Source: an uncultured Eubacteriales bacterium (GTDB taxonomy: Bacteria; Bacillota; Clostridia; Lachnospirales; Bianqueaceae). Taken from it: DNA of 64,000 nt. The notes beneath the pieces are model-generated. The model had not been told where the DNA came from. It saw only the letters and a list, made by a program, of their open reading frames with translations, and did not search any database. This document shows positions 5,450 through 64,000 of the stretch, piece by piece (the first letter of the stretch is position 1; every line of letters begins with the position of its first letter). The stretch is from assembly GCA_900316145.1 (NCBI GenBank), contig ONBQ01000030.1, forward strand, positions 288 to 64,287, written 5' to 3'. The translations under genes were made by a program, and so were the position numbers.

Positions 5450-5461
5450 CAGGATATTCCT

Positions 5462-7114: not shown

Positions 7115-7137
7115 AAAAATGGAAAAGGAGAACAGAC

Positions 7138-9049: not shown

Positions 9050-9558
9050 ATCGATGGAAGATCGTAATATGGCTCATGATCCTGACCTGCCCTTGGTTCC
9101 GTCCGGTCCAGGCGCAGGAAGAGAGCATGGCAGTCCCGGTATATATCGAGGGACCCGGAGCAACGGTAGCTGCCTTCGACATGGAAGGAAAGGAGGCAGC
9201 CCGGGTGGAACTTAAGGAGGATGGGGAAGGTGCCCTTATGCTTCCGGTCCCGCCGCTTACAACGGTGCGGTATACGGTCCGGCAGCTTGAAACCGGCGAA
9301 GGATTCGATCCGACCGAATGGACCATCACGGTCATGGATGGAACTGATGAGAAGGACAGGCCGATGAAGATCCTGGTCGCGGAAACCAAGGAAGGGAAGA
9401 AAGACAAAGTGGTCTTTTACAACAAGAAAAACGTGGAGACAGAGGTGCCAAAGACCGGTGACAGGAGCAGGACCGGCCTCCTTTGGGCCATGCTGATCCT
9501 GTCGTTTGGAGCTTGCGTCAGTATCCTGATCAAGGTCCGAAAGGAGGGAGAGAGATGA
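9046..9558 (+). CDS. Small minor/basal pilin (FctB-like) with a VPKTG sorting signal
   Basis: 170 aa with a signal peptide ..PVQAQ. VPKTG (9445-9459) + TM + KVRKEGER tail. ATGA overlap with the sortase stop. Confidence 0.55.
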   Translation: MNRWKIVIWLMILTCPWFRPVQAQEESMAVPVYIEGPGATVAAFDMEGKEAARVELKEDGEGALMLPVPPLTTVRYTVRQLETGEGFDPTEWTITVMDGTDEKDRPMKILVAETKEGKKDKVVFYNKKNVETEVPKTGDRSRTGLLWAMLILSFGACVSILIKVRKEGER

Positions 9559-11801: not shown

Positions 11802-11911
11802 ATGTAACAAAAATAGTCTTTTCTTTTTTCTCCTTTTGTGGTATTCTGTGGAAAACGGAAGCAATATTTCGCTTCTCATTCGGAAAACAACAAGAAAAGG
11901 AGTAGATCACT

Positions 11912-13225
11912 ATGTCGAAGATCCTGAGCAAGCCTGAGTACGAGCGTTGGACAGCTGAGACGCGTGACCGCCGCATGGATTGGTGGAGACAGGCGCGTTA
12001 TGGTATGTTTGTTCATTATGGCCTCTTCTCAACGGTAGGACGTCATGAGTGGGGCATGGTCCAGGAAAACTGGCCCATCGAAGAGTATGAGAAACTGGCT
12101 GATAACTTCAATCCGAAGCCCGGCGCGCCGCGCGAGTGGGCGAAGCTGGCAAAAGCGGCCGGCATGAAGTACATGGTCATGATCACCCGTCATCATGAGG
12201 GATTCTCCTTGTGGGATTCCAAAGCCAACCCCTATAACTCTGTCAATTATGGACCGCATCGCGACCTGGTCCGTGAATTTGTAGATGCCTGCCGTGAATT
12301 CGGTCTGGGTATCGGTTTCTATTCCACCTGCATGGAGTGGCATCATCCGGATTCCGGTCGCTGCGCGTATGATAACGAGGCCAGAAAGCGCTATACGCAG
12401 TTCCTGATGGATATCAACACAGAACTGCTCACCAATTATGGCAAGATCGATATCCTCTGGTATGATGTACCGGCTCCCATGGAAAGCTGGGAAGGCTGGG
12501 ATTCCCTGGTCCGCAATCAGAAACTCAGAGAGCTGCAGCCGGATATCATCATCAATGACCGCAGCCGTCTGCCGGAAGATTTCGGCACGCCGGAAGAGCA
12601 TGTCACTCCGGGTGAGCGTGACTGGGAAGCCTGCATGACCTTCAACGGCCTGTCCTGGGGTTATGTGGATTCCGAGCAGGTCAAGCCCTTCAGCTATTCC
12701 GCTCAGCAGATCATCAAGATGATCAATACCTGCGCGGCCAATGGCGGCAACCTGCTGCTGAACATCGGTCCGACACCGGACGGTTCCGTTCCGGAAGAAG
12801 CGGTCGAACCGCTGCTGAAGGTCGGTGAGTGGCTGAAAGAGAACGGCGAGGCTGTTTATGGCAAGATGATCAAAGGCGGCGGCTGGGGCCACGCGAAATT
12901 CGGCGGCAACGGCGTTACCTGGGCATCTGCCAAGGAAGGCCACGTCTATCTGTGGAACGTGATCTGGCCGAAGGACGGCACCATGGCGATCGGCGGCTAT
13001 ATGAACGCACCGAAGAAGATCACCCTGCTCAAGGACGGTACTCCGATCGACTTCGAGCATAAGGGCCACCGCATCATCCTGAAGAACCTGCCGAAGGAGA
13101 TCCCGGATACGATCTGCGGCATCACTGTTCTGGATATGGAATTTGATGAAGAGCCGAAGTATGTCTTCGCGTCCTATTATCCGCAGCTGCATGGCGGCGA
13201 GGAATTTACCGACAATAAGATCTGA
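11912..13225 (+). CDS. GH29 alpha-L-fucosidase
   Basis: 437 aa. WWRQARYGMFVHYGLFS, MVMITRHHEGFSLWDS, NGGNLLLNIGP. Confidence 0.85.
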   Translation: MSKILSKPEYERWTAETRDRRMDWWRQARYGMFVHYGLFSTVGRHEWGMVQENWPIEEYEKLADNFNPKPGAPREWAKLAKAAGMKYMVMITRHHEGFSLWDSKANPYNSVNYGPHRDLVREFVDACREFGLGIGFYSTCMEWHHPDSGRCAYDNEARKRYTQFLMDINTELLTNYGKIDILWYDVPAPMESWEGWDSLVRNQKLRELQPDIIINDRSRLPEDFGTPEEHVTPGERDWEACMTFNGLSWGYVDSEQVKPFSYSAQQIIKMINTCAANGGNLLLNIGPTPDGSVPEEAVEPLLKVGEWLKENGEAVYGKMIKGGGWGHAKFGGNGVTWASAKEGHVYLWNVIWPKDGTMAIGGYMNAPKKITLLKDGTPIDFEHKGHRIILKNLPKEIPDTICGITVLDMEFDEEPKYVFASYYPQLHGGEEFTDNKI

Positions 13226-13241
13226 GGAGGACTGTTTTACC

Positions 13242-14660
13242 ATGAAATATGAACCGACAAGAGAATCCGTTTCCAGCCACGAGGCGCCACAGTGGTTTAA
13301 AGATGCCAAATTCGGTATCTTTATCCATTGGGGACTGTTTTCCGTACCCGGATGGGCTGTAAAAAAACCGGAAGGCCAGAGCATGGTCGATGGCGATGAA
13401 CTGCCCTCCATGGAAGAGCAGATGAAGTATCATCCCTATGCCGAATGGTACCTGAATTCCCTGCGCTGCCCAGGTTCTCCGACCCAGGAGTACCATGAGA
13501 AGACCTATGGGAAGGATTTCGATTATTTCGATTTCTATCATGAATTCCAGAAAGAAAGCGATAAGATGGATCCGGAAGCCTGGGCCAAGTTCTTTGAAGA
13601 AGCCGGCGCGAAATACGTCGTTCTGGTCACCAAGCATCATGACGGCTACACCCTGTGGCCCAGCGAGCACAAGAATCCCTTCATGCCGGACTATCAGTCC
13701 AAGCGGGATCTGGTGGGCGAGCTGACCGATGCCGTTCGTGCGCATAACATGAAAATGGGCCTGTATTACTCTGGTATCTTTGACTGGACGTTCAAGCATG
13801 AGCCGATGAACAGCCCGGAGAACTGGGCGGATCATTATGTCGCGTCTGATGAGTACGCTGCTTATTCCGAAGCACAGACCCGCGAACTGATCGAGAAGTA
13901 TCATCCGTCTGTTCTGTGGAACGATATGGGATATCCGGCGCAGACCGATCTGATGAAGCTGTTTGCGGATTACTATAATACGGTAGAAGATGGCGTATTG
14001 AATAACCGTTGGCTGCAGATCGATGAGGCCGGCCGTCAGAAATATATCGATGAGATCTACAAGGCTAAGGCAGAAGGCAAGGGTATTCCGTTCCAGATCG
14101 AGATCGGAGACTACTATACGCCTGAGTACGCCCGCGTTCTCAACTATGACACGGAGAAATGGGAGTTGTGCCGCGGCATTGGTATGTCCTTCGGATACAA
14201 CCGTAACGAGAACCCGGCCAACTTCATGAAGGCCAAAGACGTCATCTGGTGCATCATCGATGTCACCGCCAAAAATGGTAATCTTCTGCTCAACGTAGGT
14301 CCGCTTGCGGATGGTACGATCCAGAAAGAGCAGATGGAACCGTTGCTGGAGACCGGTGCGTGGCTGAAGGTCAACGGAGAGGCCATCTATGCGACGACCT
14401 GCCGTGAAGACAAGCAGTCGGATGTAACGAAAGATGGAAAAGAAGTCCGTTACACCAAAAAGGGAGATGTCCTTTATGCCATCGTCATGGATGAGCAGCC
14501 CGGAAAGACCGTCGCGATCGAAGGCCTGGAAGTTCCGGAAGGCAAGAAGGTAGAGATCCTGGGCATGGGCGATGTTGAGTTCTGTCAGAAAGACGACGCT
14601 CTTGTAGTCGCGCTGCCGGATAATATGCCGCCGTACGCATACGTCCTGAAGATCGCTTGA
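13242..14660 (+). CDS. GH29 alpha-L-fucosidase
   Basis: ATG at 13242 behind a GAGGAGG RBS; the track start at 13143 overlaps the upstream gene. WFKDAKFGIFIHWGLFSVPGW, VLVTKHHDGYTLWPS, NGNLLLNVGP. Confidence 0.85.
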   Translation: MKYEPTRESVSSHEAPQWFKDAKFGIFIHWGLFSVPGWAVKKPEGQSMVDGDELPSMEEQMKYHPYAEWYLNSLRCPGSPTQEYHEKTYGKDFDYFDFYHEFQKESDKMDPEAWAKFFEEAGAKYVVLVTKHHDGYTLWPSEHKNPFMPDYQSKRDLVGELTDAVRAHNMKMGLYYSGIFDWTFKHEPMNSPENWADHYVASDEYAAYSEAQTRELIEKYHPSVLWNDMGYPAQTDLMKLFADYYNTVEDGVLNNRWLQIDEAGRQKYIDEIYKAKAEGKGIPFQIEIGDYYTPEYARVLNYDTEKWELCRGIGMSFGYNRNENPANFMKAKDVIWCIIDVTAKNGNLLLNVGPLADGTIQKEQMEPLLETGAWLKVNGEAIYATTCREDKQSDVTKDGKEVRYTKKGDVLYAIVMDEQPGKTVAIEGLEVPEGKKVEILGMGDVEFCQKDDALVVALPDNMPPYAYVLKIA

Positions 14661-18103: not shown

Positions 18104-18934
18104 ATGAAAAAGATCCTTACGATACAAGATATTTCCTGCTTTGGCAAGTGCTCCCTTACCATTGCCCTGCCGGTCATCTCCGCGATGGGCGTAGAGACGG
18201 TCATCCTGCCCACGGCGGTCCTGTCCACCCATACCATGTTCAAAAACTTTACCGTAAAAGACCTGACGGATCAGCTGCTGCCGATCACGCAGCACTGGAA
18301 GAATGAAGGCATCACCTTTGACGCCATCTATACCGGGTACCTGGGTTCCGCGGAGGAGATCGAGATCGCGAAGGAGATCTTCCGCATGTTCAAGACCGAT
18401 GACACGATGATCTTTATTGACCCGGTCATGGCGGATAACGGAAAGATGTATCCGGCCTTTGATGAAAACTACGCCAAGCTGAACGCGGGACTGTGCGGGG
18501 AGGCCGATATCATCGTGCCGAATATTACAGAAGCCTGCTTTATGACCGGCACCGAATATAAAGAAGAGTACGACGAGGCCTATGTGCTGGACCTCCTGCA
18601 TAAACTGGCTGGTCTTGGTGCCAAAACGGTCGTGCTGACCGGCGTGTCCCTGTCCAAAGGCAAGACCGGTATCTACGGCCTGGAAACAGCCACGGGCCGC
18701 ACCTTCCAGTATCAGAATGACCGGATCGACGCCTCCTATCATGGAACCGGCGACCTGTTCTCCAGCGTGACCATAGGCGCCTTAATGCGGGGCTATGATC
18801 TGGAAAAAGCCTTCCAGATCGCGGCGGATTATACCGCACGTACCATCGAAGTTACGATGGAAAACCCGGACAAGCCCTGGTACGGGGTCGATTTCGAAGC
18901 GACTTTGCCGGAGCTGATGCAGATGTTGAAATAA
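18104..18934 (+). CDS. pdxK: Pyridoxal/pyridoxamine kinase
   Basis: ATG at 18104 (MKKILTIQDISCFGKCSL..). Ribokinase-fold PdxK pattern: YTGYLGS, IDPVMADNGKMY, YHGTGDLFSS. Confidence 0.8.
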   Translation: MKKILTIQDISCFGKCSLTIALPVISAMGVETVILPTAVLSTHTMFKNFTVKDLTDQLLPITQHWKNEGITFDAIYTGYLGSAEEIEIAKEIFRMFKTDDTMIFIDPVMADNGKMYPAFDENYAKLNAGLCGEADIIVPNITEACFMTGTEYKEEYDEAYVLDLLHKLAGLGAKTVVLTGVSLSKGKTGIYGLETATGRTFQYQNDRIDASYHGTGDLFSSVTIGALMRGYDLEKAFQIAADYTARTIEVTMENPDKPWYGVDFEATLPELMQMLK

Positions 18935-18961
18935 TGCCCAAACCCAAGCCTTCATAGAGCA

Positions 18962-19021
18962 AAGAAGCTGTCTTACGAGCAAGCAGAGGAAATCGCTTGT
19001 GTAAGACAGCTTCTTTTTTTA
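18962..19021. terminator. Rho-independent terminator between convergent pdxK and the MATE gene
   Basis: AAGAAGCTGTCTTAC (18962-18976) / GTAAGACAGCTTCTT (19001-19015), followed by a T run. Confidence 0.75.
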
Positions 19022-19029
19022 TACAGTTT

Positions 19030-20388
19030 CTATACTGCTCCGTCAACCTTTGGAAGCTTACGCCGGATCCACAGATATACGATGAAGTGGGCCAGCGTGG
19101 TGATCAGCCAGGAGATCGGATAGGAGATGTAAAGCCCGTGCAGGGTATGAAAGTGCGGGAAGATGGCGTAGATCCAGACGATACGCAGTCCGCAGGCGCC
19201 GATCAGGGATACGATGGTCGGCAGCAGGGAATAGCCCATGCCGCGGATCTGGCCGGAAAATACATCCATCCAGCCGCAGATGAAATATACCAGACCTACA
19301 TACAGAAGACGGATGGAACCCGCCGCGATGACTTCGGCATCCGAAGTGTAGATATTAAGCGCCTGCGCGCGGAACAGGTAGAGCAGACCGCCCAGGACGG
19401 CGCCGATCACAGTGGCCAGAGCCAGATTGATGATCAGGACCCGGTTCAGGCGGCTGTATTTTTTGGCGCCCAGGTTTTGACCGGCAAAGCACAGAGCCGA
19501 TTGGCTGAAGGAATTGATACTGGTATAGACGAAACCGCCCACGTTGGAGGCAGCTGTGTTGGCCGCCATAACGGTCCCGCCGAAGGAGTTGACGGAAGAC
19601 TGGATGATCGCGTTGGATAAGGAGAACAGGCAGCCCTGGATGCCGGCCGGAAGACCGGTGCGGGTGATGGCCCAAAGCTTGTCTTTATAGATGCGAAGCT
19701 GCTTCCAGTACAGGTGACAGCTCCCGTGCAGTTTGGTCAGATACCGCAGGATCAGGAAGGCGGAGACGGCCTGGGAAATGATGGTGGCCAAAGCGACGCC
19801 GTCCACATCCATGTGCAGGACGATCACGAAGAACAGATTGAGAAGAAAATTCAGGACCCCGGCGATGGTCAGATAGTACAACGGATGACGGGTGTCGCCG
19901 GTGGCACGCAGGATGGCGCTGCCGAAATTGAAGGGCATCATGGCGATCATGCCGCAGAAGTAGATCCTCATGTACAGGACTGACTTATCGATGACATCCT
20001 CAGGCGTATCCATGAGCCGAAGCAGAGGATAAGCGAGGATCAGCCCCAGGACGGTCAGGATGATCCCGCCCAGAAAACTGACGGCGATAGAGGTGTGGAC
20101 CGTTTCGTGAATGTCCTGGTGGCGCTGAGCTCCGTAATGCTGCGCAACGATAACGTTGGTCCCCACGGACAGGCCGATGAACAGATTGACGATCAGATTG
20201 GTGATGGCGCCGGTGGAACCGACAGCGGCCAGGGCTGTATTGCCGGCAAAGCGTCCGACCACGACCAGGTCGGCGGCGTTGAACAAGAGCTGCAATACAC
20301 CGGCAGCCATGACGGGTAAGGTAAATTTAAGGATCTTGCCGACAAGCGGCCCGCTTGTCATGTCGATATCATATCTTCGGGAAGCCAT
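19030..20388 (-). CDS. MATE-family efflux transporter
   Basis: Preferred start is the ATG at 20388 (MASRRYDIDMTSGPLVGKILKFTLPVMAAG, GAAGGA RBS). The track start at 20502 adds an implausible 38-aa leader. Confidence 0.85.
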   Translation of the reverse strand: MASRRYDIDMTSGPLVGKILKFTLPVMAAGVLQLLFNAADLVVVGRFAGNTALAAVGSTGAITNLIVNLFIGLSVGTNVIVAQHYGAQRHQDIHETVHTSIAVSFLGGIILTVLGLILAYPLLRLMDTPEDVIDKSVLYMRIYFCGMIAMMPFNFGSAILRATGDTRHPLYYLTIAGVLNFLLNLFFVIVLHMDVDGVALATIISQAVSAFLILRYLTKLHGSCHLYWKQLRIYKDKLWAITRTGLPAGIQGCLFSLSNAIIQSSVNSFGGTVMAANTAASNVGGFVYTSINSFSQSALCFAGQNLGAKKYSRLNRVLIINLALATVIGAVLGGLLYLFRAQALNIYTSDAEVIAAGSIRLLYVGLVYFICGWMDVFSGQIRGMGYSLLPTIVSLIGACGLRIVWIYAIFPHFHTLHGLYISYPISWLITTLAHFIVYLWIRRKLPKVDGAV

Positions 20389-20557
20389 GGATATCCTTCT
20401 TTCTTTTTGCGCTCTTGCCACTTTACTGCCAAACCGGAGGTTTGTCAAGAAGGTGGTTTTGTCCATGAATCGTTTTCTTTCCTCCGTTGACAGAACAACC
20501 AAAAATCTATATACTTTGCTATAGAATTATGTGCAAATCGGAAAGGAGAAACACGAT

Positions 20558-22969
20558 ATGCAAAAACAAAACCTGAACCTTGGGTGGGAGTTTCGTGACA
20601 ATAATCAGATGTTCGCGTTTCCCGGCGCGGAAGGACCTAAAAATCTGAAGATCGATCTTCCTCATGACTTTATCTACACCAAGCCCCGAGATCCGAAAGC
20701 GGCCGGCGGCGCTCCGAACGGCTATTTCGGTGAGGGCCGCGGTATCTATGAGAAGACCTTGGAGATCCCGGAAGAGTGGATCGGCAAGCGTATCATTCTG
20801 GATATCGACGGTGCTTATATGAACGCGGAAGTGACCCTGAACGGGGAGCTTCTTGCCATGCATCCCTATGGCTATACCCCCTATCTGGTGGATCTGTCCA
20901 ACCATGTCAAGGCGGGTTCCAATAAACTGGTGATCACGGTCCAGAGCCGTCAGCCCTCCACACGCTGGTATTCCGGCGGCGGTCTGTATCGCAGCGTCTC
21001 TCTGTGGGTAGGTGAGCCGGTCGGCATCGAGCCGTGGGATATCTTCGTCACCACGCCGGAAGTCGCAAAAGACCGGGCTGTGGTGCGCGCCGAAGTCTCC
21101 GTATCCACGCTTCACAGCGTGCAGTCTACGGCCAACGTCGAGATGACGGTCGTGGATCCGGACGGACAGCCCGTTGCTTGCGGAAAGATCCTGACCCATG
21201 TCGAGCCGGGCCAGAAGATCAAGTCCAAGATCCAGATGGAAGTCACCGATCCGAAGCTGTGGAACACCGTGACCCCCAATCTGTACACCTTGAAGACCGT
21301 GCTGAAGGTACCCGGACAGGCGGATGAAACAGCCGAGACCGTCTTCGGTATCCGCAAGTTCGAGGCAGACGCTGTGAACGGCCTGCGCTTAAACGGCGAG
21401 CCCATCAAGCTGAAGGGCGGCTGCATCCATCACGATGCTGCGTTCTTGGGTTCCGCGGCCTGGCCGAGAGCGGAAGAGCGCAAGATCCAGATCCTTAAAA
21501 ACGCCGGTTATAACGCGGTCCGCATCAGCCATTATCCGCCGTCACTGGAGATGCTTAAAGTCTGTGACCGAGAAGGTATCATTCTGCTGGATGAGGCTTT
21601 TGACTGCTGGCGTATCGGTAAGGTCCCGATGGATTACCATCTGTACTTCGAGGAGTGGTGGGAGCGCGACATCGAGTACATGGTCAAGCGTGACCGCAAC
21701 CATCCTTGCGTCTTCTCCTATTCCATCGGCAATGAGATCGGTGAGCGTGATGGTTCCGGCAATGGTTATTACTGGGCCCACAAGCTGGCGGAAAAGATCC
21801 GATCCTTCGACAATACTCATTTCGTGACCTCCGCCATCTGCGGCGTCTTCGATCCGGAAGCGCTGAAAGCGATGCTGGCCGGTGCCGAAGATAAGGACAA
21901 CATCAATGTGATGAACCTCGAGCAGAGCAAAGAGCGCGACAACTGGGGCACCAAGACCGCGGATTACGCGTCCGCTCTGGATATCGTTGGTTACAACTAT
22001 CTGTATGAGCGCTACGCAGATGATAAGACCCGCTTCCCAGGTCGTGTGATCATGGGCACCGAGACCCATCCGTTCAACACCTATGACTACTGGAAAGCCA
22101 CCATGGACAACAGTCACGTCATCGGCGACTTCATCTGGACCGCTTATGACAACCTGGGCGAGGCCGGTGTCGGCCGTGTCGTCTGGGATTCCGAAAGCCA
22201 GGATCATGGTTTCATGGGTCCGTGGCCGTGGCGCAGCTGCTTCCAGGGCGATATGGATCTGTGCGGCTACCGTACCGGTCAGTCCTACTATCGTGAGATC
22301 ATGTGGGAAGCCTTCGATGGCCACAGCGATAAGATGGCCCTTTACACCACCCATCCCTGCCACAACGGCGATACCTTCTGGGGCACCGGCTGGCATTGGA
22401 GAGATGTGGAAGACACCTGGACCTATGACGACGAATGGCTGGGCAAGCCGGTCAAGGTCGATGCCTATGCGGATGCGGATGAGGTCGAGTTCTTCCTGAA
22501 CGGAAAATCCTGCGGCAAAGCACCGGTTGAAAAGCTGGAAGCCTCTCTGGAGATCCCCTATGAAAAGGGTACCGTGGAAGCGGTCGCCTATCGCGATGGC
22601 AAAGAGATCGCCCGCTGCTGCCTGAAGACGACGGGCAAAGCTGCGGCAGTCACAGCCTGCGCGGATCGTCCCTGCATCAAAGCGGACCGTCAGGATCTGT
22701 CCTATGTGGCGCTGACGATCGTAGACGCGGAAGGCAACCGTGTACCGTATGAAGATTCCGTGATCTGCGTCGAGGTCAGTGGAGCGGGTCGCCTGGCAGG
22801 CATGGGCTCCGGCAATCCCTGCACGGAAGAGAACTATGGTACACCGTACTGCAAGGCCTATGAAGGCCGGGCTATGGCCGCTGTCGTAGCGGATGAGCCG
22901 GGTCAGATCACGGTCAAGGTCTGCGTCGAAGGATGCGAGCCTTGCGAGATCACGATCGAAGCGAAATAA
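20558..22969 (+). CDS. GH2 glycoside hydrolase (beta-galactosidase/beta-glucuronidase family)
   Basis: ATG at 20558 behind GGAAAGGAG. NLGWEFR.., VRISHYPPS, NHPCVFSYSIGNEIGE (acid/base NE), GTETHP. Confidence 0.85.
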   Translation: MQKQNLNLGWEFRDNNQMFAFPGAEGPKNLKIDLPHDFIYTKPRDPKAAGGAPNGYFGEGRGIYEKTLEIPEEWIGKRIILDIDGAYMNAEVTLNGELLAMHPYGYTPYLVDLSNHVKAGSNKLVITVQSRQPSTRWYSGGGLYRSVSLWVGEPVGIEPWDIFVTTPEVAKDRAVVRAEVSVSTLHSVQSTANVEMTVVDPDGQPVACGKILTHVEPGQKIKSKIQMEVTDPKLWNTVTPNLYTLKTVLKVPGQADETAETVFGIRKFEADAVNGLRLNGEPIKLKGGCIHHDAAFLGSAAWPRAEERKIQILKNAGYNAVRISHYPPSLEMLKVCDREGIILLDEAFDCWRIGKVPMDYHLYFEEWWERDIEYMVKRDRNHPCVFSYSIGNEIGERDGSGNGYYWAHKLAEKIRSFDNTHFVTSAICGVFDPEALKAMLAGAEDKDNINVMNLEQSKERDNWGTKTADYASALDIVGYNYLYERYADDKTRFPGRVIMGTETHPFNTYDYWKATMDNSHVIGDFIWTAYDNLGEAGVGRVVWDSESQDHGFMGPWPWRSCFQGDMDLCGYRTGQSYYREIMWEAFDGHSDKMALYTTHPCHNGDTFWGTGWHWRDVEDTWTYDDEWLGKPVKVDAYADADEVEFFLNGKSCGKAPVEKLEASLEIPYEKGTVEAVAYRDGKEIARCCLKTTGKAAAVTACADRPCIKADRQDLSYVALTIVDAEGNRVPYEDSVICVEVSGAGRLAGMGSGNPCTEENYGTPYCKAYEGRAMAAVVADEPGQITVKVCVEGCEPCEITIEAK

Positions 22970-57576: not shown

Positions 57577-57612
57577 AAGAGTGTGAGAGCGAAAGCTTCA
57601 CACTCTTTTTTT
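57577..57612 (+). terminator. Rho-independent terminator
   Basis: AAGAGTGTGA (57577-57586) / TCACACTCTT (57598-57607), followed by TTTTTGC. Confidence 0.85.
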
Positions 57613-57667
57613 GCGCTTTTATTAGAAGAAAAATCACAGGATTTCATCTGAAATAAGAGCGCAAATA

Positions 57668-57696
57668 TTGACATATACACAAAAAAAAAGTAAAAT
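57668..57696 (+). promoter_or_regulatory. Near-consensus sigma-70 promoter of the VWA/tubulin-like module, with an A9 tract in the spacer
   Basis: TTGACA (57668-57673), 17-nt spacer containing A9 (57681-57689), TAAAAT (57691-57696). Confidence 0.55.
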
Positions 57697-57862
57697 AATT
57701 GTAATATTGTGTAGCAAAATCGAGTTTTGTTCGGTATTCATAACAGAAGACCGAAAACAGAGGCGCTTCTTGCTTCTGACAGCCGGATCAGGCCGGCTTT
57801 CTTCTTGTATTACCAATCTACCTATATCTACAGCAAAAGAGAAATGGGGGAATGAAACGCTT

Positions 57863-60466
57863 ATGAGACGAAAATTAAGCGTACTGCTTGCCGTGCTGAT
57901 GCTGTTATCAGCAGTGACAGCCTTTGGCGCCAAGCCAATCGAGGCGGCAGAAAAAGCCCAAAAGACCAGGGCCATCGCCATTGTATATGACAATTCCGGT
58001 TCCATGTACTGGGACGGAATGAACCGTGGAGGCGGTAAATGGTGGTGCCAGGCCTTGTATGCAATGGAAGTCTTCGCATCCATGATGAATGAGGGAGACA
58101 GCATTTGGATCTATCCTATGTGGCCGGTTACGGCACAAGGTCAGAGCTATCCGCAAGGGTCGCCGATCCAGATCACAAATCCTAAGGACGCACCTATCAT
58201 CCGCGATATTGAAACACCGCAGGCCGGCAATACACCGATCCAGTCGATCGAATGGGCTTATGAAGGACTGAAGTCCATGACCGGTGATGAGAAGTGGCTG
58301 GTCGTTCTTACAGATGGGGCCAATTTCAATGCTCCGGATGGCCCGGCCTATGGCGAAGGGGATCCGACCAGACAAGCGTTGGAAGAATTGATACAGCCAT
58401 ACGTCAATGATGTAAACGTCCTGTATCTGGGTATCGGAGATGAAGCCTCCAAACCCAATATCTCACCCGGCAGTCAGTTCCAGGGCATGGCCGATAAGGC
58501 CGTTCGCAGTGAAGAGATCCTTTCCAAACTGACGAGCATGTGCAATATGATCTTCGGTCGAGATGAACTGCAGACGTCCGGCGGTACGGTCGAATTTGAT
58601 GTTTCTATGGCCCGCCTGATCGTTTTTGTACAGGGTGACAATGTTTCCAACGTGGACCTGGCTGGAGCGGGAACGCGCGGAGATGATCTCTCCCCGCGGT
58701 ACAGCGAGCACAAATCGACAAAAGACTCGCAAGGCTCCTTCGACGGCGGTATCGATGATACGCTGCAAGGCGTGATCACCAACTTCTATGACGCGCCGGC
58801 GGGTTCCTATACTTTAAGCTACTCAGGAAGCGTTACGAGTACAGGTGTATACTACGAGCCGGATGTTGACCTCGTCGCCCGTCTGGTAGATGCCAACGGC
58901 AATGATGTGACCAACAATCCGGAGCTTTCTCCTGGAGAGTATACGATCGAATATGGTCTTGTCGATGGACAGACCGGGGAAATGACAAGTTCCGATCTGC
59001 TGGGTAATACGCATTATGATGTGAATTATACCCTCAATGGGGAGACCTTCTCCCTTTCCACCGACGAAAAGCAGGGAACGATTCCGGTTTCCTTTGGAGA
59101 AGAGGATACTTTCAAGCTGGATGATATTACCGTTGAATACCTGAGCGGATATCGAATCCATAAATCCGGCGATGAACTGGGATGGCCGAGCGGAGGCGTC
59201 ACGATCCCGAAGCAGGGTCCTGATCCGGCTGGCGAGCTGGCCATCACCGTTTCCGGCGGGACGGATCACTATAACCTTTCCACACTGGAAGAGGAAGAGC
59301 CCTACACGCTGGAATTCACCTATGATGGGAATAAGATGAGCGCCGATCAGGTCGCTACGATCGAACTGGACATCCAGAGCCAGAATGCGGGCATCGCTTT
59401 TGAACCGGTGCTGGATGGAGATCACTATACCGTGACCGTCCACTACGCCGATGAAGCCCATCCGGAAAACACGGAGTGCGGTGATGTGGTCGCCCTGATC
59501 AAGGCTTCCTATACGGAGCCGGAGCATGAAACGGCGACAGCCAACGCGGCTATCAACTTCACCCTGGATAACGATGTGACCGGACTTGGCGCCAAACTCG
59601 AAATGGAGCATGAACGCTACACGCTCGCTGAGCTGGATGGATCACAGGCTATTCTGAACCTGACGATGGGCGGCGAACCGCTGACCGATCAGCAGATGGC
59701 TGACCTGAACGTGGAAGTCACAGTCGCGGATAAAAAAGGCCATACGATCCCTTATACAGTGGAGAAAGATCCGGCCGGATCCCGCGCGATCATCACATTC
59801 AGCAAAGAAAACGTCAAGACGGGCAATTATAAGATCGATGTGACAGCCACGACCAAGGATCAGATCGGTATGGATTCATCCGCATCGGCCTCGGCGAAAT
59901 TCCATGTCAGACGGTTCCCGCTTTGGCTCATCTTCACAGGAATCTTCGTGATCCTGGCCCTGCTTGCGGCCTTGGCCTGGTTCATCCTGAGCCGCAAGGT
60001 CCTGCCGAAGAGAGTCTTCGTCAGAAACACGATCTATTCCGTAGATGGAGAAGAGGTCCCGGGTGATCCGCAGGTCAACTTCAAAGGCGCCAGACAGAAA
60101 ACAGGTACCATCCAGATCACGGTCCCGCGCTCAGCCGCGCATCCTATGGCCAGAGCACACTTTACACTGCATGTGGAAGCAGCGGATACGCGCTTCAAGG
60201 TCCTGAAGAAAGCACTGACGGGTAAAGGCAGCCTGACGGCGATCTGCACCGGAATAGATTCCCACCTCAACGTTAAACGTGTTATGGTTTCCGGAACGGC
60301 GGTCAACTGGGATGAAGAGACCCATCGTCAGATCCTTCCGCCGGGTGAGGATCATCTGGCACCGTTCCGTATCGGAACCGATGACTCCGCTTCCATGAAT
60401 GCTGAAGCAATGGATGAAAATGGCTATGTCGACATGAACATGACGACAAACTTTAATTTCAGATAA
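57863..60466 (+). CDS. Secreted type-I membrane protein with an N-terminal VWA (MIDAS) domain, a long extracellular region, one TM and a cytoplasmic tail
   Basis: ATG at 57863 (MRRKLSVLLAVLMLLSAVTAFGA signal peptide); the track start at 57668 sits inside the promoter. MIDAS DNSGS at 57989-58003, GNTP, VVLTDG. TM FPLWLIFTGIFVILALLAALAWFILS at 59915-59992, followed by RK and 157 aa. Confidence 0.8.
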   Translation: MRRKLSVLLAVLMLLSAVTAFGAKPIEAAEKAQKTRAIAIVYDNSGSMYWDGMNRGGGKWWCQALYAMEVFASMMNEGDSIWIYPMWPVTAQGQSYPQGSPIQITNPKDAPIIRDIETPQAGNTPIQSIEWAYEGLKSMTGDEKWLVVLTDGANFNAPDGPAYGEGDPTRQALEELIQPYVNDVNVLYLGIGDEASKPNISPGSQFQGMADKAVRSEEILSKLTSMCNMIFGRDELQTSGGTVEFDVSMARLIVFVQGDNVSNVDLAGAGTRGDDLSPRYSEHKSTKDSQGSFDGGIDDTLQGVITNFYDAPAGSYTLSYSGSVTSTGVYYEPDVDLVARLVDANGNDVTNNPELSPGEYTIEYGLVDGQTGEMTSSDLLGNTHYDVNYTLNGETFSLSTDEKQGTIPVSFGEEDTFKLDDITVEYLSGYRIHKSGDELGWPSGGVTIPKQGPDPAGELAITVSGGTDHYNLSTLEEEEPYTLEFTYDGNKMSADQVATIELDIQSQNAGIAFEPVLDGDHYTVTVHYADEAHPENTECGDVVALIKASYTEPEHETATANAAINFTLDNDVTGLGAKLEMEHERYTLAELDGSQAILNLTMGGEPLTDQQMADLNVEVTVADKKGHTIPYTVEKDPAGSRAIITFSKENVKTGNYKIDVTATTKDQIGMDSSASASAKFHVRRFPLWLIFTGIFVILALLAALAWFILSRKVLPKRVFVRNTIYSVDGEEVPGDPQVNFKGARQKTGTIQITVPRSAAHPMARAHFTLHVEAADTRFKVLKKALTGKGSLTAICTGIDSHLNVKRVMVSGTAVNWDEETHRQILPPGEDHLAPFRIGTDDSASMNAEAMDENGYVDMNMTTNFNFR

Positions 60467-60502
60467 TAAACCAATCATGAATCAACATGAAGGAGGAAAA
60501 CA

Positions 60503-63500
60503 ATGAGAAACGAAAACCTGAAACCCAATACCGTAGACGCTCCTACCTTGTTCGTCGGCGTCGGCGGTACCGGCAGTGACATCGTCCGCATGGTAGCGGA
60601 GATGTGTGATCCGGCGGAAGTAGAGAACATCAGCTTCGTCTGCCTGGACACCAACGTCAATGACCTGTCCAATGTCGAGAACAGCGGCGCCAAGATCTAC
60701 GCGGTACAGACTTCTACCACGCAGACCGTCGGTGACTATCTGGACTATGATGAGGACGCGTTAAAGAACTGGTTCCCGAAGAACGCGGTCATGTATGATA
60801 AGACCGTTTCCGAAGGCGCCGGCCAGGTCCGCGCGATCTCCCGTCTGGCCCTGAACTCCACCATCAAGACCGGCAAGATCGCTCCTCTGTATGACGCGAT
60901 CGACAACCTGTTCCGTAAGGACGGCCGCAAGCTGAAGCAGGCCATGCGTGTCGCTATCGTTTCCACCGCCTCCGGTGGTACCGGTTCCGGTATCATTCTG
61001 CCGCTGGCCATGTTCATCCGTGATTACATCAAGAATAAGTATCCGCAGACCGGTACGATCGTTCGTTCCATGATCCTTCTGCCGGAGACCCTGGATTCCG
61101 TCATCACCTCTTCTGTAGAGCGTGACAGCCAGCGCCGCAATGCTTACGCGACCATCAAGGAGATCAACGCTTTCATGATGAAAGGCTCGGGCTTCTGCGA
61201 TATCGATGGTGATTTCAGCCGCTACAGAGATCTGCATGTGGATATTCCGATCGCGGGCACCAATGATAAAAAATCTCTGTCTCTGCTGCCGTTCGATTTC
61301 TGCTTCCTGCTGGATGGCCAGAACTCCGAAGACAACACCCTGGTCAACTTCGGCCAGTACAAGAGACAGGCTGCCCAGGCTCTGTATGAGCAGAACATCG
61401 GACCGATGCAGAAGGGCGCCTTCTCCGTAGAAGACAATATTATCAAGGAAATGTCCAACCCCGGCAATCTGGGACGTAACCGTTTCGGTGGTATCGGCGC
61501 GGGCGTTCTGCGCTATCCGTACAAGCAGATCGCGGAATACATCGCCTATGGCTGGGCTATGGAGTCCATCGGCGGAGCCGGTGAGGCCGCAAAATGGTCC
61601 AAGTATGATAACGAATTTGAAGTAAAACTGGCTGAGGCCCGCAAGAAGGGACTTTCTCAGGAAGAGGCTCCGAAGCGCGCGGAAGTCTACACGCAGACCC
61701 TGCAGTCCGCGACCGACAACTTCTCCAAGGATCTTCGCTCCAAGTTCCTGAACAACGCCGACAAGCGTGTCCGCAACTACTTCACCTCTCTGGCCAACTA
61801 CATGCATGACAGTGTACGAGCCAACAGCATGATCTCCGCCACCATGACCGCTGCCGGCCATCTGGAGAACAAGATCGATTACGCGAACAATGAAAACAAC
61901 CGTGGCCATGCGGTAGAAAACCTGGCCCGCCTGCGTGATTTCGAAGCGGCTGTCAACATGAACGCCAAGAAGGTCGCGGAAAGCATCGCCGAAGCGGTCT
62001 TCATGAATGAAGATAAGACCATCAACGCCAAGCTGCCGCACACCCTGGAGTTCCTGCTGAAGAACTCTTATGGTGAAGTCAGCCATCCGAACGCGGCCCG
62101 CTTCATGCTGTATCAGGCTCAGACTGAGATCAACAAGCGCGTCCTGACCACGCAGTCCCGTCTGGGACAGGCCCAGGAGACCCTGGAACTGTACTCCGAC
62201 GATGCCAGCAATGAGAACATGTTCGATGTCGGCAAGACCAAGAAAGAAAAAGAAGAGAACATGGATCAGATGGTCGCCGCTGAAGCCAACTTCAAAGAGA
62301 AGTACAACGAGGATTACTATGAGAGCAAGCTGAACAAGCACTTCCCGGCTTACTTCCGCGCTGTCAAGGAATTCTGCGAACTGACTGCTGAACTCGAAGC
62401 CTACAAGATCGGTTCTGAGTACATCAAGGAACTGTCCAAGGCTTATGAGAAGTTCTATCAGACCTTTGGCGACAAGGTCGAGGCTCTTATGCGCAAGCGT
62501 GAGGATATCGTCGATGAGTTGAAGTTCGTCAAGGGCGACTCTGTCCTGAACATCTGCGCCAGCCGTGCCATGCTTGAAGAGCTGGCCCTGACCACGAAGA
62601 ACCAGAGTGCCGAAGGCTCTCTGCTTAGCTCCGAGCTGAACGCCAAGATCTTTGACGCGGTCAAAGCCAATGTCGCTTTCGAGCGCGAGATCCGCAACGC
62701 GGATATCGTTGAAGAAGATAAGCGCATCGATATCTTCGATGACATCATCCTTGGCTACTTCAAGGACAGCGTAGAAGATACCTGCGATACCATCAACCTG
62801 AACATCATCGAAGCCATCGCTATGGAGAACCGTCTGCAGGCCCGCATCAAGATGCGTGAGAAGCAGAAGGACAATGGCGAAGAGGGTGATAAGATCTTCG
62901 ATCAGGTCACCCATAAGGACAATGAGACCTACATCAAGAAGATCATCGATAAGGGCATGCGCCTGGCGGCTCCCGGCATCCAGAGCATCCGCAACGAGGA
63001 AGACCGCATGGTACAGTGCGCGGCCTACAACTCTTCTCTGAGAGATATGCGCAACTACCGCGTAGATGATCTGATCGAGGTCAGCAACAAGGCGGCCGTC
63101 GACAGCATCTCCCGTTATGAGCTGCATTTCTTCAACGCGCTGTACAACATCACTCCGGATAAGCTGAAGAAATTCGCCTGCCACAGTGAGAGCGAGACCG
63201 GCGTCAAGAACGCGGGACTGTATCACAACGCGTATATCTCCTATGCGCGCAACATCGGCCCGGATTCCACCAAGAACACCCAGATCTCCACGCATATCGA
63301 CAAGCGTTGGGATTCCCTGGCTACCATGCCGGAAATGGACTTCAAGTTCCAGAACGAGCAGATGATGAAGATCCATCAGGCGATGATCTATGGTCTGGTG
63401 CACAACGCCATCACCTTCCGCAAGCTTTCCGCGAGCGCCGGCAAGAAGCGCGTCTATCGGTATGAGAATTCCGATGAGCGTTACACCGAGCTGATCGTTT

Positions 63501-64000
63501 CCAACGGTACGCTTTGCGATGAGTTCTATGAGATCCTGGATTCTCTGTACATCAGCTCCTCCATCGTTGAGGATATCCAGAGAGTCAAGAATAAGAAGAA
63601 CGCGAAGGACCGTGTCCGCAACGCCAACTATGTCGATACCGTATTCTACAATGACCTGCAGAATTTCCAGATCGACACCCTACATGAAGGCCAGGCCAGC
63701 CTCTTCGAGATCCCGGTCGCGTACTACAATTCTTTGCCGAACAGCCGTCGTTTCGATGATGAGATCTCGGCGATCGTAGACGCTGTGGTCAAGACCTTTG
63801 AGGATGAGACTTACATGTGGGAGAAAGCAGAGGATGCCCGCTTCATCCTGTGCAACCAGCTGGTCGAACAGTTCAACCTGTTCCTGGACAACTTTGAGAA
63901 GTGCGAAGCTCTGAGAGCGAACCTGAGCGTACAGGATCATCCGGTCGTAGATATGATCTTCCGTAAGATCAAGAACGTTCTGGAAACCGATCCGGAACCC
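60503..64000 (+). CDS. Giant tubulin/FtsZ-superfamily GTPase-like protein (5' part; ORF still open at the window end)
   Basis: Not in the supplied track. AGGAGG RBS at 60491-60496, ATG at 60503, 1166 sense codons with no stop to nt 64000. GVGGTGS at 60557-60577, GAGQVR at 60815-60832, SGGTGSG at 60971-60991. Confidence 0.75.
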   Translation, partial: MRNENLKPNTVDAPTLFVGVGGTGSDIVRMVAEMCDPAEVENISFVCLDTNVNDLSNVENSGAKIYAVQTSTTQTVGDYLDYDEDALKNWFPKNAVMYDKTVSEGAGQVRAISRLALNSTIKTGKIAPLYDAIDNLFRKDGRKLKQAMRVAIVSTASGGTGSGIILPLAMFIRDYIKNKYPQTGTIVRSMILLPETLDSVITSSVERDSQRRNAYATIKEINAFMMKGSGFCDIDGDFSRYRDLHVDIPIAGTNDKKSLSLLPFDFCFLLDGQNSEDNTLVNFGQYKRQAAQALYEQNIGPMQKGAFSVEDNIIKEMSNPGNLGRNRFGGIGAGVLRYPYKQIAEYIAYGWAMESIGGAGEAAKWSKYDNEFEVKLAEARKKGLSQEEAPKRAEVYTQTLQSATDNFSKDLRSKFLNNADKRVRNYFTSLANYMHDSVRANSMISATMTAAGHLENKIDYANNENNRGHAVENLARLRDFEAAVNMNAKKVAESIAEAVFMNEDKTINAKLPHTLEFLLKNSYGEVSHPNAARFMLYQAQTEINKRVLTTQSRLGQAQETLELYSDDASNENMFDVGKTKKEKEENMDQMVAAEANFKEKYNEDYYESKLNKHFPAYFRAVKEFCELTAELEAYKIGSEYIKELSKAYEKFYQTFGDKVEALMRKREDIVDELKFVKGDSVLNICASRAMLEELALTTKNQSAEGSLLSSELNAKIFDAVKANVAFEREIRNADIVEEDKRIDIFDDIILGYFKDSVEDTCDTINLNIIEAIAMENRLQARIKMREKQKDNGEEGDKIFDQVTHKDNETYIKKIIDKGMRLAAPGIQSIRNEEDRMVQCAAYNSSLRDMRNYRVDDLIEVSNKAAVDSISRYELHFFNALYNITPDKLKKFACHSESETGVKNAGLYHNAYISYARNIGPDSTKNTQISTHIDKRWDSLATMPEMDFKFQNEQMMKIHQAMIYGLVHNAITFRKLSASAGKKRVYRYENSDERYTELIVSNGTLCDEFYEILDSLYISSSIVEDIQRVKNKKNAKDRVRNANYVDTVFYNDLQNFQIDTLHEGQASLFEIPVAYYNSLPNSRRFDDEISAIVDAVVKTFEDETYMWEKAEDARFILCNQLVEQFNLFLDNFEKCEALRANLSVQDHPVVDMIFRKIKNVLETDPEP

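Follow-up and report, generated by a model that had tools for sequence, protein, structure and literature searches.

Organisation and conservation of the operon

The window (the whole stretch of DNA analysed, 64,000 nucleotides) holds the first half of a conserved membrane operon of four genes, a clostridial form of the vWA/FtsZl1 system. An earlier reading made from the letters alone (the sequence-only reading) had described a two-gene module, in which a surface VWA/MIDAS membrane protein is encoded directly ahead of a giant tubulin/FtsZ-superfamily protein of the cytoplasm. The pair and its predicted co-transcription were borne out, but the conserved unit comprises four genes. Downstream of nt 64000 the source contig (L085) shows the last 16 aa and the stop of gene 2, and the operon then runs on with two more conserved genes. 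Gene 1, gene 2, a 689-aa gene and a 1505-aa gene thus lie in tandem, the last two overlapping by 8 nt. Gene 2, which had been read as open at the window end with at least 1166 aa, has a true length of 1182 aa, as established from P0001 and L085.

Linkage was assessed by tblastn in 80 species-level loci, each gene being scored over the loci with enough DNA for it. The B5-like gene (family c3) was found in 74/74 loci, the B12-like gene (family c0) in 66/66; gene 1 lies upstream of the tubulin-like gene in 62/62, a figure reached after inspection of 16 cases in which only the divergent tail escapes tblastn. The VWA and tubulin-like genes always precede the B5-like and B12-like genes, no two-gene-only arrangement was seen among the loci with enough DNA, and the same partner genes are kept down to tubulin identities of 25-34%. 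Median identity is 37% for the extracellular protein and B5 and 50-56% for the other two components, so that the former pair evolves faster; no GC break occurs across the cassette. The identities of the components, their membrane topology (from hydropathy analysis of all four proteins) and the four-gene linkage are, taken jointly, very probably correct.

The vWA/FtsZ-like pairing is not new, and has been known since 2010, when vWA/FtsZl1 operons were the central context finding of a comparative-genomic study (Makarova & Koonin 2010, Biol Direct 5:33), one that the sequence-only reading had itself cited. Additional file 5 of that study lists the exact vWA-FtsZl1-B5-B12 cassette in 'Bacteroides' (Pseudoflavonifractor) capillosus (BACCAP_04121-04124) and Ruminococcus lactaris (RUMLAC_01526-01529). 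The four families and their order are the same and the sizes nearly so (861/1183/658/1435 aa there, 867/1182/689/1505 aa here), the vWA protein, as described in that study, likewise combines a signal peptide and a TM segment with an intact MIDAS site, and nothing essential differs; the tubulin-like protein of the P. capillosus locus (L068) is 63% identical to the gene 2 product. The operon described here is a further orthologue, in a rumen/gut Clostridia MAG. No experimental work on any family member was found in the literature, in agreement with the earlier reading. The present analysis adds structure models, membrane topologies, a candidate T7-like motif, the findings that the protease end is modular and that linkage is strict in about 80 species and down to 25% identity, and a negative defence-island census.

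Transcription signals and 5′ leader

The strong terminator after the galK-like gene and the operon's own near-consensus promoter, both proposed earlier, were confirmed (Table 1). The terminator hairpin (-17.9 kcal/mol, z=-3.6) is missed by a pattern scan because of its bulge. The promoter falls within a longer ORF that begins with TTG, a point in favour of the ATG at 57863 as the actual start. Within the 5′ leader, a second terminator-like hairpin (57781-57798; AGCCGG-loop-CCGGCT, then a T-rich run) may have a regulatory role; an Rfam search of the leader gave no family match.

Table 1. Features of the operon in the window, with the evidence for each.
Feature	Position	Strand	Evidence
Intrinsic terminator of upstream galK-like gene	57577..57613	+	13-pair hairpin, one bulge, GAAA loop, then U7
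Sigma-70-type operon promoter, TTGACA-17-TAAAAT	57668..57696	+	11/12 consensus matches
5′ leader, about 160 nt	57703..57862	+	whole-leader fold -43.5 kcal/mol, z=-2.05
Gene 1, type-I surface protein, 867 aa (vWA component, COG2304-like)	57863..60466	+	ORF; AF2 mean pLDDT 88
Signal peptide, aa 1-26	57863..57940	+	hydrophobic aa 3-26; AF2 helix aa 2-20, disorder aa 21-30
VWA domain, aa 33-236, MIDAS intact (D43-x-S45-x-S47, T124, D151)	57959..58570	+	conservation, AF2, profile links
Extracellular stalk, tandem beta-sandwich (Ig-like) domains, aa 237-685	58571..59917	+	AF2 strands, Foldseek, weak Ig-like Pfam
Single TM helix, aa 687-709 (to about 711 by hydropathy)	59921..59989	+	hydropathy, AF2
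Folded beta-rich cytoplasmic domain, aa 718-867	60014..60463	+	AF2 pLDDT about 90-96
AGGAGG RBS of gene 2	60491..60496	+	read from sequence, 6 nt before ATG at 60503
Gene 2, FtsZl1/Tubulin_2 family, 1166 aa in window	60503..64000	+	ORF open to window end
Tubulin_2 domain, aa 16-355	60548..61567	+	PF13809 E=4.3e-53, 181 bits vs cut-off 27
T1 loop GVGGTG, aa 19-24	60557-60574	+	within Tubulin_2 domain
T4 signature SGGTGSG, aa 157-163	60971-60991	+	within Tubulin_2 domain
Alpha-helical body of gene 2, aa 356-1166 in window	61568..64000	+	AF2 long helices, pLDDT mostly 80-93

Surface protein encoded by gene 1

The signal sequence, MIDAS motifs and single TM helix that had been assigned to the gene 1 product (100% identical to P0121) were upheld by ORF, hydropathy, AF2 and conservation analysis. 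The proposed hmmscan gave a mixed outcome: Pfam did not detect VWA in the protein itself, while sub-threshold VWA_2 matches were obtained in 18/33 relatives, such VWA_2/VWA matches covering nearly the whole profile. A profile built from the N-domain finds P0308 at E=1e-35, and P0308 clears the Pfam VWA gathering score (27.2 vs 23.8 bits). AF2 places an alternating beta/alpha domain at aa 36-231, and the residues D43, S45, S47, T124 and D151 (in DNSGS, GNTP and LTDG) do not vary in two sets of 33 and 46 homologues, whose mean column identity is 36-44%. The assignment of the N-domain as VWA is supported by these four lines of evidence.

Foldseek matched the stalk to complement C3 MG-domain arrays, cadherins and integrin ectodomain/legs (E down to 4e-10), with the integrin alphaXbeta2 ectodomain among the gene 1 matches. 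A conserved basic K-x-L-P-K motif (here KVLPK) directly follows the TM helix. The tail (about 155 aa) is not a loose one but a confidently folded domain in the AF2 model, for which Pfam gave no match. Within the protein, conservation is lowest in the tail (mean pairwise identity 31%) and highest in the VWA head (54%). The gene 2 product is highly conserved, and a conserved direct contact between it and the tail therefore fits poorly; the relay of a signal through the tail, as previously suggested, is not supported.

Tubulin-like protein encoded by gene 2

The start of gene 2 behind its RBS was located as in the sequence-only reading. The product is a soluble, distant tubulin/FtsZ relative: no TM segment was found by hydropathy, the Tubulin_2 profile match is strong, and Foldseek returned gamma-, alpha- and beta-tubulin and TubZ with probabilities of 0.97-1.0, which bears out the superfamily assignment made earlier. 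The general Tubulin profile (PF00091) stays below threshold (E=9e-5), and in a comparison with E. coli FtsZ the T1 region alone aligned. Across 121 divergent relatives, conservation reaches at least 85% in T1, in T4 and in a GAG motif at 105-107; judged by sequence, the GTP-binding loops are intact. Foldseek found no credible PDB fold match for the helical body, and the overall architecture persists at identities as low as about 25%.

AF2 is of low confidence at aa 226-335. This segment is nevertheless 77% conserved and carries a family-wide acidic S-x-E-D-N at a helix start, where a T7/H8-like element is expected, which makes it a candidate T7-like motif. The highly conserved but poorly modelled segments, S-x-E-D-N among them, are candidate interface segments.

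Membrane proteins B5 and B12

Gene 3 (B5) encodes a protein of about 690 aa with a two-TM hairpin and both large ends cytoplasmic by hydropathy. Gene 4 (B12) encodes a polytopic protein of about 1450-1500 aa. Besides a multi-TM block at its N-terminus, this protein contains about 800 aa of conserved cytoplasmic body, an amphipathic helix rich in K and F and an acidic disordered linker, and its C-terminal end is made up of a zinc ribbon plus an HExxH zincin-like domain. In family c0 the CxxC...CxxC and H-E-x-x-H residues are invariant, and sub-threshold metallopeptidase and zinc-ribbon matches occur in 14-20/26 members; from these motifs and matches, the end is read as a putative zincin-like protease. 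This independent reading agrees with the earlier annotation of B12, a zincin protease that is membrane-associated and has a Zn finger (Makarova & Koonin 2010). The protease end is modular.

Genomic context

The nearest neighbours of the cassette are overwhelmingly housekeeping genes, PADLOC gave no match for the four core proteins and any PADLOC model was matched by only about 6-8/131 nearest neighbours, and the family is near-absent from plasmids and phages (matches in 3/72,556 plasmid and 1/50,697 phage records). For these reasons a defence-island role is not supported, and the defence or abortive-infection option raised earlier loses ground; the sequence-only reading was right, however, in rejecting cell division, TubZ/TubR partition and phage as the context. 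Channel-like accessory genes (Castor/Pollux-like c5, uncharacterised c4) adjoin the cassette in about 30% of loci, and these membrane-protein genes are present also at a distant locus. TIR-LRR (TIR_2+LRR_5) genes adjoin it in about 10% of loci, in several lineages and on either side. Neighbours of these two kinds would fit a conflict system with effectors as well.

Comparison with related systems

Firmicutes systems in which tubulin and coiled-coil proteins are paired with extracellular vWA membrane proteins were described by Kaur, Burroughs, Iyer & Aravind (2020, eLife 9:e52696), who predicted a membrane-proximal role for the GAP1-N2-type GTPase-centric conflict systems with tubulin components. 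The present operon shares with these the occurrence in Firmicutes, a tubulin-superfamily protein with a helical/coiled-coil extension, an extracellular-vWA membrane protein and TM-rich partners. It differs in having no P-loop GTPase, GAP1 or YtkA-fused vWA and in having one tubulin and one vWA gene instead of two of each; B5 and B12 stand in for the missing components. Like TubZ/TubR and phage PhuZ, it contains a divergent bacterial tubulin-superfamily GTPase (TubZ is among the gene 2 Foldseek matches), but it is chromosomal, lacks a TubR-like DNA-binding partner, encodes a protein three times larger and has membrane-protein partners. The gene 1 product resembles integrins in its VWA/MIDAS head, beta-sandwich stalk, one TM helix and small cytoplasmic domain, and its gene adjoins that of a cytoskeletal-superfamily NTPase. 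Eukaryotic integrins carry an alphaI/betaI VWA domain on Ig-like legs, a single TM and a cytoplasmic tail linked to the cytoskeleton; the resemblance is an analogy of architecture, with homology evidence confined to shared domain types.

Interpretation

The best explanation overall, and a reasonably probable one, is a vWA/FtsZl1-type operon encoding a membrane-anchored GTP-dependent assembly that joins a surface ligand-binding head to cytoplasmic partners. Were it instead a conflict or immunity system that senses threats, such as Kaur et al. (2020) predicted, which is considered unlikely, the VWA head would sense an invader or a neighbouring cell, NTP-dependent tubulin-like assembly would set the threshold, and the zincin protease, with channel-like or TIR proteins where present, would be the effectors. 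The Firmicutes pairing described by those authors argues for this, as do the TIR-LRR and c5/c4 neighbours, the modular protease end, the faster evolution of the extracellular protein and B5, and a 2026 preprint in which a different Aravind-type system (surface Ig-stalk sensor plus MoxR/vWA) was shown by experiment to sense epibionts. Against it stand the absence of the defining P-loop GTPase and GAP1 (none of the core proteins has a conserved Walker A motif), the single tubulin and vWA genes, the PADLOC result, the housekeeping neighbours and the scarcity on plasmids and phages; the putative sensor tip, moreover, is where gene 1 is best conserved, not where it varies most.

That FtsZl1 does not polymerise, and serves as a GTP-regulated switch or scaffold, a large helical adaptor in control of the membrane platform or of the B12 protease with nothing cytoskeleton-like formed, is judged quite unlikely. 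In its favour, Makarova & Koonin (2010) were unable to identify T6-H7/T7 in FtsZl1, AF2 confidence is low exactly at the expected activation domain, the PF00091 alignment reaches only profile position 155 of 190, and the Foldseek alignments lie for the most part in the N-terminal domain (about 230-250 columns). Some alignments to gamma-tubulin/TubZ, however, reach 300-343 columns, and the conservation of the poorly modelled segment, with S-x-E-D-N placed as for a T7/H8-like element, points the other way. To our knowledge, all characterised tubulin superfamily members self-associate, which also counts against a non-polymerising protein. A self-contained device of two genes, in which the gene 1 tail relays ligand binding directly to a gene 2 polymer, would suit their adjacency (36 nt apart), the strong gene 2 RBS and their co-occurrence in all 62 loci; it is highly improbable and already contradicted by the gene-order data, two further genes of the same operon being equally strictly linked; the low conservation of the tail also counts against it.

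In the favoured membrane-anchored assembly, the three membrane proteins would make a platform on the cytoplasmic membrane face, on which the FtsZl1 protein would assemble in a GTP-dependent manner. Metal-dependent ligand binding by the outer VWA head would be physically coupled to this assembly and to the tethered protease, and the signal could run either way. The general idea of outside-in coupling is possible; its specific form, a GTP-dependent membrane assembly coupling outside to inside, is tentative and somewhat doubtful. A role in the cell envelope, in adhesion or in membrane organisation is favoured over that of a mobile anti-phage system, given that the operon is chromosomal, with a housekeeping-type context, and that the VWA tip is conserved.

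Cassette composition and linkage

The two proteins of the module in the window were identified, the topology of all four cassette proteins was established, and the four genes proved to be strictly linked, closely spaced, with one overlap, and served by one promoter. Genes downstream of the window were read from the source contig (L085), which matches the window at 16,135 of the 16,138 overlapping bases. Gene 2 is followed there, after 67 nt, by a gene for a 689-aa protein (B5) and this by a gene for a 1505-aa protein (B12), which overlaps the 689-aa gene by 8 nt. Linkage was determined in 80 loci, each taken from a species-representative genome of the Oscillospiraceae, Lachnospiraceae, Acutalibacteraceae or Erysipelotrichaceae; most of these genomes are MAGs from gut or rumen, and two cultured species of Pseudoflavonifractor are included. 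Co-occurrence was counted by tblastn, because a simple, greedy ORF caller was misled in GC-rich loci by antisense shadow ORFs (c6, c7, c10 and c18). At loci with enough DNA, the third gene was present in 74 of 74, the fourth in 66 of 66 and gene 1 in 62 of 62 cases; each locus held one tubulin gene and one vWA gene, and no further genes belong to the cassette. The two-gene module proposed by the sequence-only reading thus has to be enlarged to four genes, both added genes being present in L085 as well. Three relatives share only 25-34% identity in the tubulin-like protein; all of them retain the VWA protein and the B12 body, and two a recognisable B5. Coordinates are collected in the table.

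Coordinates of features in the window and at compared loci (L numbers, fetched loci)
Sequence	Feature	Position	Strand	Remarks
Window	galK terminator			hairpin of -17.9 kcal/mol, then U7
Window	operon promoter	57668		TTGACA-17-TAAAAT, 11/12 consensus positions
Window	5' leader	57703-57862		-43.5 kcal/mol, z=-2.05
Window	terminator-like hairpin in leader	57781-57798		AGCCGG-ATCAGG-CCGGCT, then TTCTTCTTGT
Window	gene 1	57863-60466	+	ORF, 867 aa
Window	gene 2	60503, past window end	+	AGGAGG six bases upstream
Window	gene 2, aa 226-335	~61178-61507		expected T7/activation-domain place
Window	gene 2, aa ~870-945	~63111-63337		poor AF2 model, highly conserved
Window	880-aa ORF antisense to gene 2	60761-63403	-	treated as shadow ORF, not gene
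L003	gene 1 homologue	7748-9958		one 736-aa gene
L004	gene 1 homologue	7782-9958		two ORFs (238 + 487 aa)
L086	fourth gene	8009-11074		zinc-ribbon/HExxH end missing
L088	fourth gene	7854-11378		HExxH absent
L003	TIR_2 + LRR gene	20003-21652		549 aa
L022	TIR_2 + LRR gene	3132-4781		549 aa
L065	TIR_2 + LRR gene	4493-6145		549 aa
L001	membrane protein gene	20575-22692		~630-710 aa
L011	membrane protein gene	20047-22188		~630-710 aa
L087	membrane protein gene	18746-20632		~630-710 aa
L005	membrane protein gene, c4	11516-13438		~630-710 aa
L045	tyrosine recombinase gene	1216-2166		Phage_integrase
L056	tyrosine recombinase gene	5968-6861		Phage_integrase
L059	tyrosine recombinase gene	6337-7182		Phage_integrase
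L078	tyrosine recombinase gene	6223-7053		Phage_integrase
L089	gene 1 homologue	4605-6905		MT836542.1
L089	gene 2 homologue	6919-9792		MT836542.1

Transcription signals

The near-consensus promoter behind a strong terminator of the galK-like gene, and the two reading frames, are present as the sequence-only reading had described them. Between the promoter and the start of gene 1 lies the leader with its terminator-like hairpin. An Rfam search of the leader gave no credible match; as judged from its sequence, the hairpin could possibly serve as an attenuator or leader regulator.

The tubulin/FtsZ relative

Gene 2 encodes 1182 aa on the source contig, so the window lacks only the last 16 residues; no transmembrane segment was found by hydropathy. 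The N-terminal part (aa 16-355) matches Pfam Tubulin_2 (PF13809) with E=4.3e-53 and 181.3 bits (cut-off 27) over profile positions 1-354 of 356, and the match to Tubulin (PF00091; E=9e-5) falls under the gathering score. The T1 loop (GVGGTG, aa 19-24) and T4 loop (SGGTGSG, aa 157-163) are invariant in 48 close homologues, and in 121 divergent full-length relatives G19, G21, G22, G24, D49-T50...N53, GAG 105-107 and G158-G163 are at least 85% conserved. Foldseek searching with the AF2 model (mean pLDDT 75) retrieved gamma-, alpha- and beta-tubulin and TubZ at probability 0.97-1.0 over 230-343 columns; the weak E-values (0.014-0.1) are due to the great length of the query. Gene 2 is thus a tubulin/FtsZ relative, as had been read from its two loops, and belongs to the FtsZl1/Tubulin_2 family. 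Its architecture (FtsZ-like N-terminal domain, helical middle and alpha-helical C-terminal region) matches the FtsZl1 pattern of about 1000-1200 aa. Full-length matches are proteins of 1050-1250 aa with identities down to ~25%; clustering at 50% gave 1343 clusters when matches up to E<=1e-3 were counted, and 364 with the limit set to E<=1e-30.

Residues 226-335, the stretch expected to hold the T7 loop and the C-terminal activation domain on which GTP hydrolysis coupled to polymerisation depends, were modelled with pLDDT <50, yet are 77% conserved. Alignment of the family with E. coli FtsZ by hhalign covered 41 columns around T1 only, in part an effect of the shallow family alignment (Neff 2.2); T6-H7/T7 of FtsZl1 were not found by the authors of the family either (Makarova & Koonin 2010, PMC2875224). 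The motif S308-x-E310-D311-N312, which stands at a helix start and is kept family-wide among the 121 divergent relatives, is a candidate T7/H8-like element on the evidence of the alignment. The other ~830 residues form a confident, mostly helical body, for which neither Foldseek (no credible structural relative) nor a Pfam search with the consensus (no family) gave a match. Within this body, H931-x-D933...W936 is at least 85% conserved across the 121 divergent relatives. The extreme C terminus carries an invariant P-E-P motif and a terminal helix.

The VWA surface protein

Hydropathy analysis of gene 1 gave a hydrophobic signal sequence (aa 3-26) and a single transmembrane helix (~aa 687-711); a basic stretch next to the helix places the last ~155 residues in the cytoplasm. 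The ATG is the true start, since the longer, TTG-started ORF contains the promoter and the database protein P0121, 100% identical to gene 1, likewise has 867 aa.

The metal-binding residues of the MIDAS (D43, S45, S47, T124 and D151) are invariant in the family in two independent alignments (36-44% mean column identity) and occupy the canonical places: D-x-S-x-S after betaA, T in the alpha2-alpha3 loop and D after betaD. In the AF2 model (mean pLDDT 88), aa 36-231 form an alternating beta/alpha domain in which MIDAS residues directly follow the strands at aa 36-42 and aa 143-150. Pfam searching of the window protein gave no VWA match, and the family consensus reached only E=0.11 against a VWA profile, with an alignment that spans nearly the whole VWA and VWA_2 profiles. 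Sub-threshold VWA_2 matches were found in 18 of 33 relatives. A profile of the N-terminal domain retrieved the database protein P0308 at E=1e-35, which itself lies above the Pfam VWA gathering score (27.2 versus 23.8 bits); a further protein, P0262, scored 25.2 bits on VWA_2. Relatives are named 'VWA domain-containing protein' at NCBI, and an orthologue has been placed in COG2304 (Makarova & Koonin 2010 supplement, PMC2875224). HMMER searching of PDB sequences with the family profile gave low-complexity or chance matches only and no solved relative, and the VWA consensus sequence gave no PDB match. Foldseek searching with the whole protein did not isolate the VWA head, because matches to the tandem beta-sandwiches of the Ig-like array fill the list; integrin alphaXbeta2 was the sole hint of it. 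The assignment of gene 1 as a VWA/MIDAS protein therefore holds on MIDAS invariance, the VWA_2 matches of relatives and consensus, the link to P0308 and the AF2 model, even though Pfam misses the window protein itself.

The ~450 residues after the VWA domain are tandem beta-sandwich domains, for which Foldseek retrieved complement C3 MG arrays, cadherins and integrin legs. The cytoplasmic "tail" was modelled as a well-folded, beta-rich domain (pLDDT >90), and its family consensus matched no Pfam family. Conservation is highest in the VWA head (54%), falls along the stalk from 47 to 33% and is lowest in the tail (31%). At one metagenome locus, L004, the gene 1 homologue is split into two ORFs, in contrast to the single gene on the near-identical contig L003; the split may be an assembly artefact or may stem from a frameshift or pseudogenisation.

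The third and fourth proteins

B5 is a two-TM hairpin with both large ends in the cytoplasm. B12 begins with a multi-TM block; its other parts are a cytoplasmic body of ~800 aa, which is strongly conserved, an amphipathic helix rich in K and F, a linker of ~200 aa with many acidic and proline residues, a zinc ribbon (CxxC...CxxC) and an HExxH motif. H-E-x-x-H and a downstream E-G-M are invariant in the family alignment; matches to peptidase models were all sub-threshold (DUF6782, 20 of 26; DUF6055, 19 of 26; BSP, 14 of 26), and B12 had been annotated earlier as a zincin (Makarova & Koonin 2010 supplement, PMC2875224). Consensus searches against Pfam assigned no family to the B5 domains or the B12 body and gave only zincin/zinc-ribbon hints for B12; HMMER profile searches of PDB sequences with both families returned low-complexity or chance matches only. 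The putative protease end is fused to B12 in one clade; the clade of 47-50% identity in the tubulin (L037-L079, for example L045 and L042) encodes it as a gene of its own (~350 aa); in the distant loci L086 and L088 the end or its HExxH is missing. The putative protease is thus a detachable module.

Relation to known systems

The FtsZl1 family, which later became Pfam Tubulin_2, was defined by Makarova & Koonin (2010, PMC2875224), who reported that most FtsZl1 operons carry a vWA protein, in which a signal peptide or TM segment and an intact MIDAS are frequent, and proposed a membrane-remodelling complex. Their Additional file 5 lists the present cassette as BACCAP_04124 (vWA, 861 aa), BACCAP_04123 (FtsZl1, 1183 aa), BACCAP_04122 ("B5", 658 aa) and BACCAP_04121 ("B12", 1435 aa), which correspond to locus L068 of what is now Pseudoflavonifractor capillosus ATCC 29799. 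The likeness to these operons lies in the vWA neighbour (62 of 62 loci) and in the orthology of L068 to the listed members. The locus, which comes from the genome of an uncultured member of the Clostridia from rumen or gut, therefore adds a member to a system already known from computation and is not itself a discovery. The same supplement lists a second FtsZl1 locus in P. capillosus, with a vWA protein and a predicted GTPase (BACCAP_01022-01027); as it holds two different FtsZl1 loci, this strain is a useful cultured organism for comparing both system types. No experimental study was found by full-text literature searches on the family, the locus tags and tubulin in defence.

Kaur et al. (2020, PMC7159879) described GTPase-centric conflict systems of Firmicutes with tubulin and extracellular-vWA components. 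These contain one or two TRAFAC-class P-loop GTPases and GAP1, which are absent from the present cassette, and the Firmicutes version has two tubulin and two vWA genes (one YtkA-fused), whereas one of each is found here. Walker A-like strings occur in one to three members of each core family and form no conserved column. Membership in these systems was rejected because no P-loop GTPase is present. TubZ/TubR-type modules lie on plasmids or phages next to a DNA-binding adaptor, whereas the present genes are chromosomal in a housekeeping context; a TubZ-like partition role and a role in cell division were rejected on genomic context.

Cellular role or conflict system

The observations of the sequence-only reading stand, and its interpretation only in part. 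Its defence option lost ground when the four core proteins were searched against PADLOC-DB v2, which gave zero matches at E<=1. Among the 131 nearest non-core neighbours, only about 6-8 gave a PADLOC match at E<=1e-5 (one to AbiEi, two to TIR, one kinase and a few to "mad" models); the majority of the neighbours are genes of central metabolism, translation or transport. Of 72,556 plasmid records 3 contain the family, each of them a very large replicon, as does 1 of 50,697 phage records, and the composition profile across the cassette shows no GC discontinuity and no sign of recent transfer. A threat-sensing conflict system, which these results oppose, could still account for the Castor/Pollux-like c5 or c4 membrane-protein genes at ~30% of loci, the TIR+LRR genes at ~10% and the faster evolution of gene 1 and B5 (median identity 37%) than of gene 2 (56%) and B12 (50%); a 2026 preprint moreover demonstrates the sensing of epibionts by another predicted system, which has an Ig-stalk sensor on the surface. 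We consider such a conflict system unlikely and, on balance, favour an envelope- or membrane-associated cellular role.

The phage record (L089; 'UNVERIFIED: Bacteriophage sp.', 9794 bp) probably represents a piece of bacterial DNA that was deposited as phage. A TIR_2 protein with BspA-type LRRs adjoins the cassette in ~8 loci, on the upstream or the downstream side depending on the locus, and has weak ThsB-like/SAVED_TIR PADLOC matches; it might serve as an accessory effector or simply happen to lie nearby. Among the accessory membrane proteins, the c5 family and the L087 protein resemble Castor/Pollux-type cation channels (Castor_Poll_mid, TrkA_C), and Pfam matched nothing in the c4 family. 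In both of the genomes most closely related to the source genome, one c4 and one c5 gene directly follow the fourth gene; the two are therefore probably present in the source genome as well. In four loci of the 47-50% clade, a tyrosine recombinase gene immediately precedes the cassette; it may be a housekeeping gene of XerC/D type or the mark of a mobile element.

Proposed mechanism

In the proposed mechanism, B5, B12 and gene 1 would form a platform at the cytoplasmic face for GTP-dependent assembly of the FtsZl1 protein, and metal-dependent ligand binding by the VWA head outside would be coupled to this assembly and to the tethered putative protease. As in the pair of FtsA and the C-terminal peptide of FtsZ, the amphipathic helix of B12 might anchor to the membrane, and the P-E-P motif and terminal helix of gene 2 might form a docking peptide. 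A direct relay from the gene 1 tail to the tubulin, as had been suggested, is argued against by the low conservation of the tail; B5 or B12 are better candidates for the adaptor. By analogy, the system might be an integrin-like machine, in which a MIDAS head on an Ig-like stalk, serving adhesion or sensing, would be coupled mechanically or allosterically across the membrane to a GTP-driven polymer on the B5/B12 platform with an assembly-switched zincin; we regard this as quite improbable. If true, Gram-positive gut bacteria would possess a cytoskeletal device for true outside-in (or inside-out) signalling.

Significance

FtsZl1/Tubulin_2 is the most divergent tubulin/FtsZ branch and, sixteen years after it was discovered by computation, is without a known function, filament structure or phenotype. 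The four-gene form is abundant in gut and rumen Clostridia (the 364 clusters at the stricter threshold, with strict linkage in ~80 species-level genomes), and cultured carriers include P. capillosus ATCC 29799, P. intestinihominis and Ruminococcus lactaris. What has been gained is a parts list with membrane topologies, a set of targets for mutation (MIDAS, T1/T4, E310/D311 and HExxH) and a reason to examine envelope and adhesion phenotypes before phage defence. A specialist will not be surprised by the locus, which is a well-defined and tractable entry to the function of the most divergent tubulin/FtsZ family.
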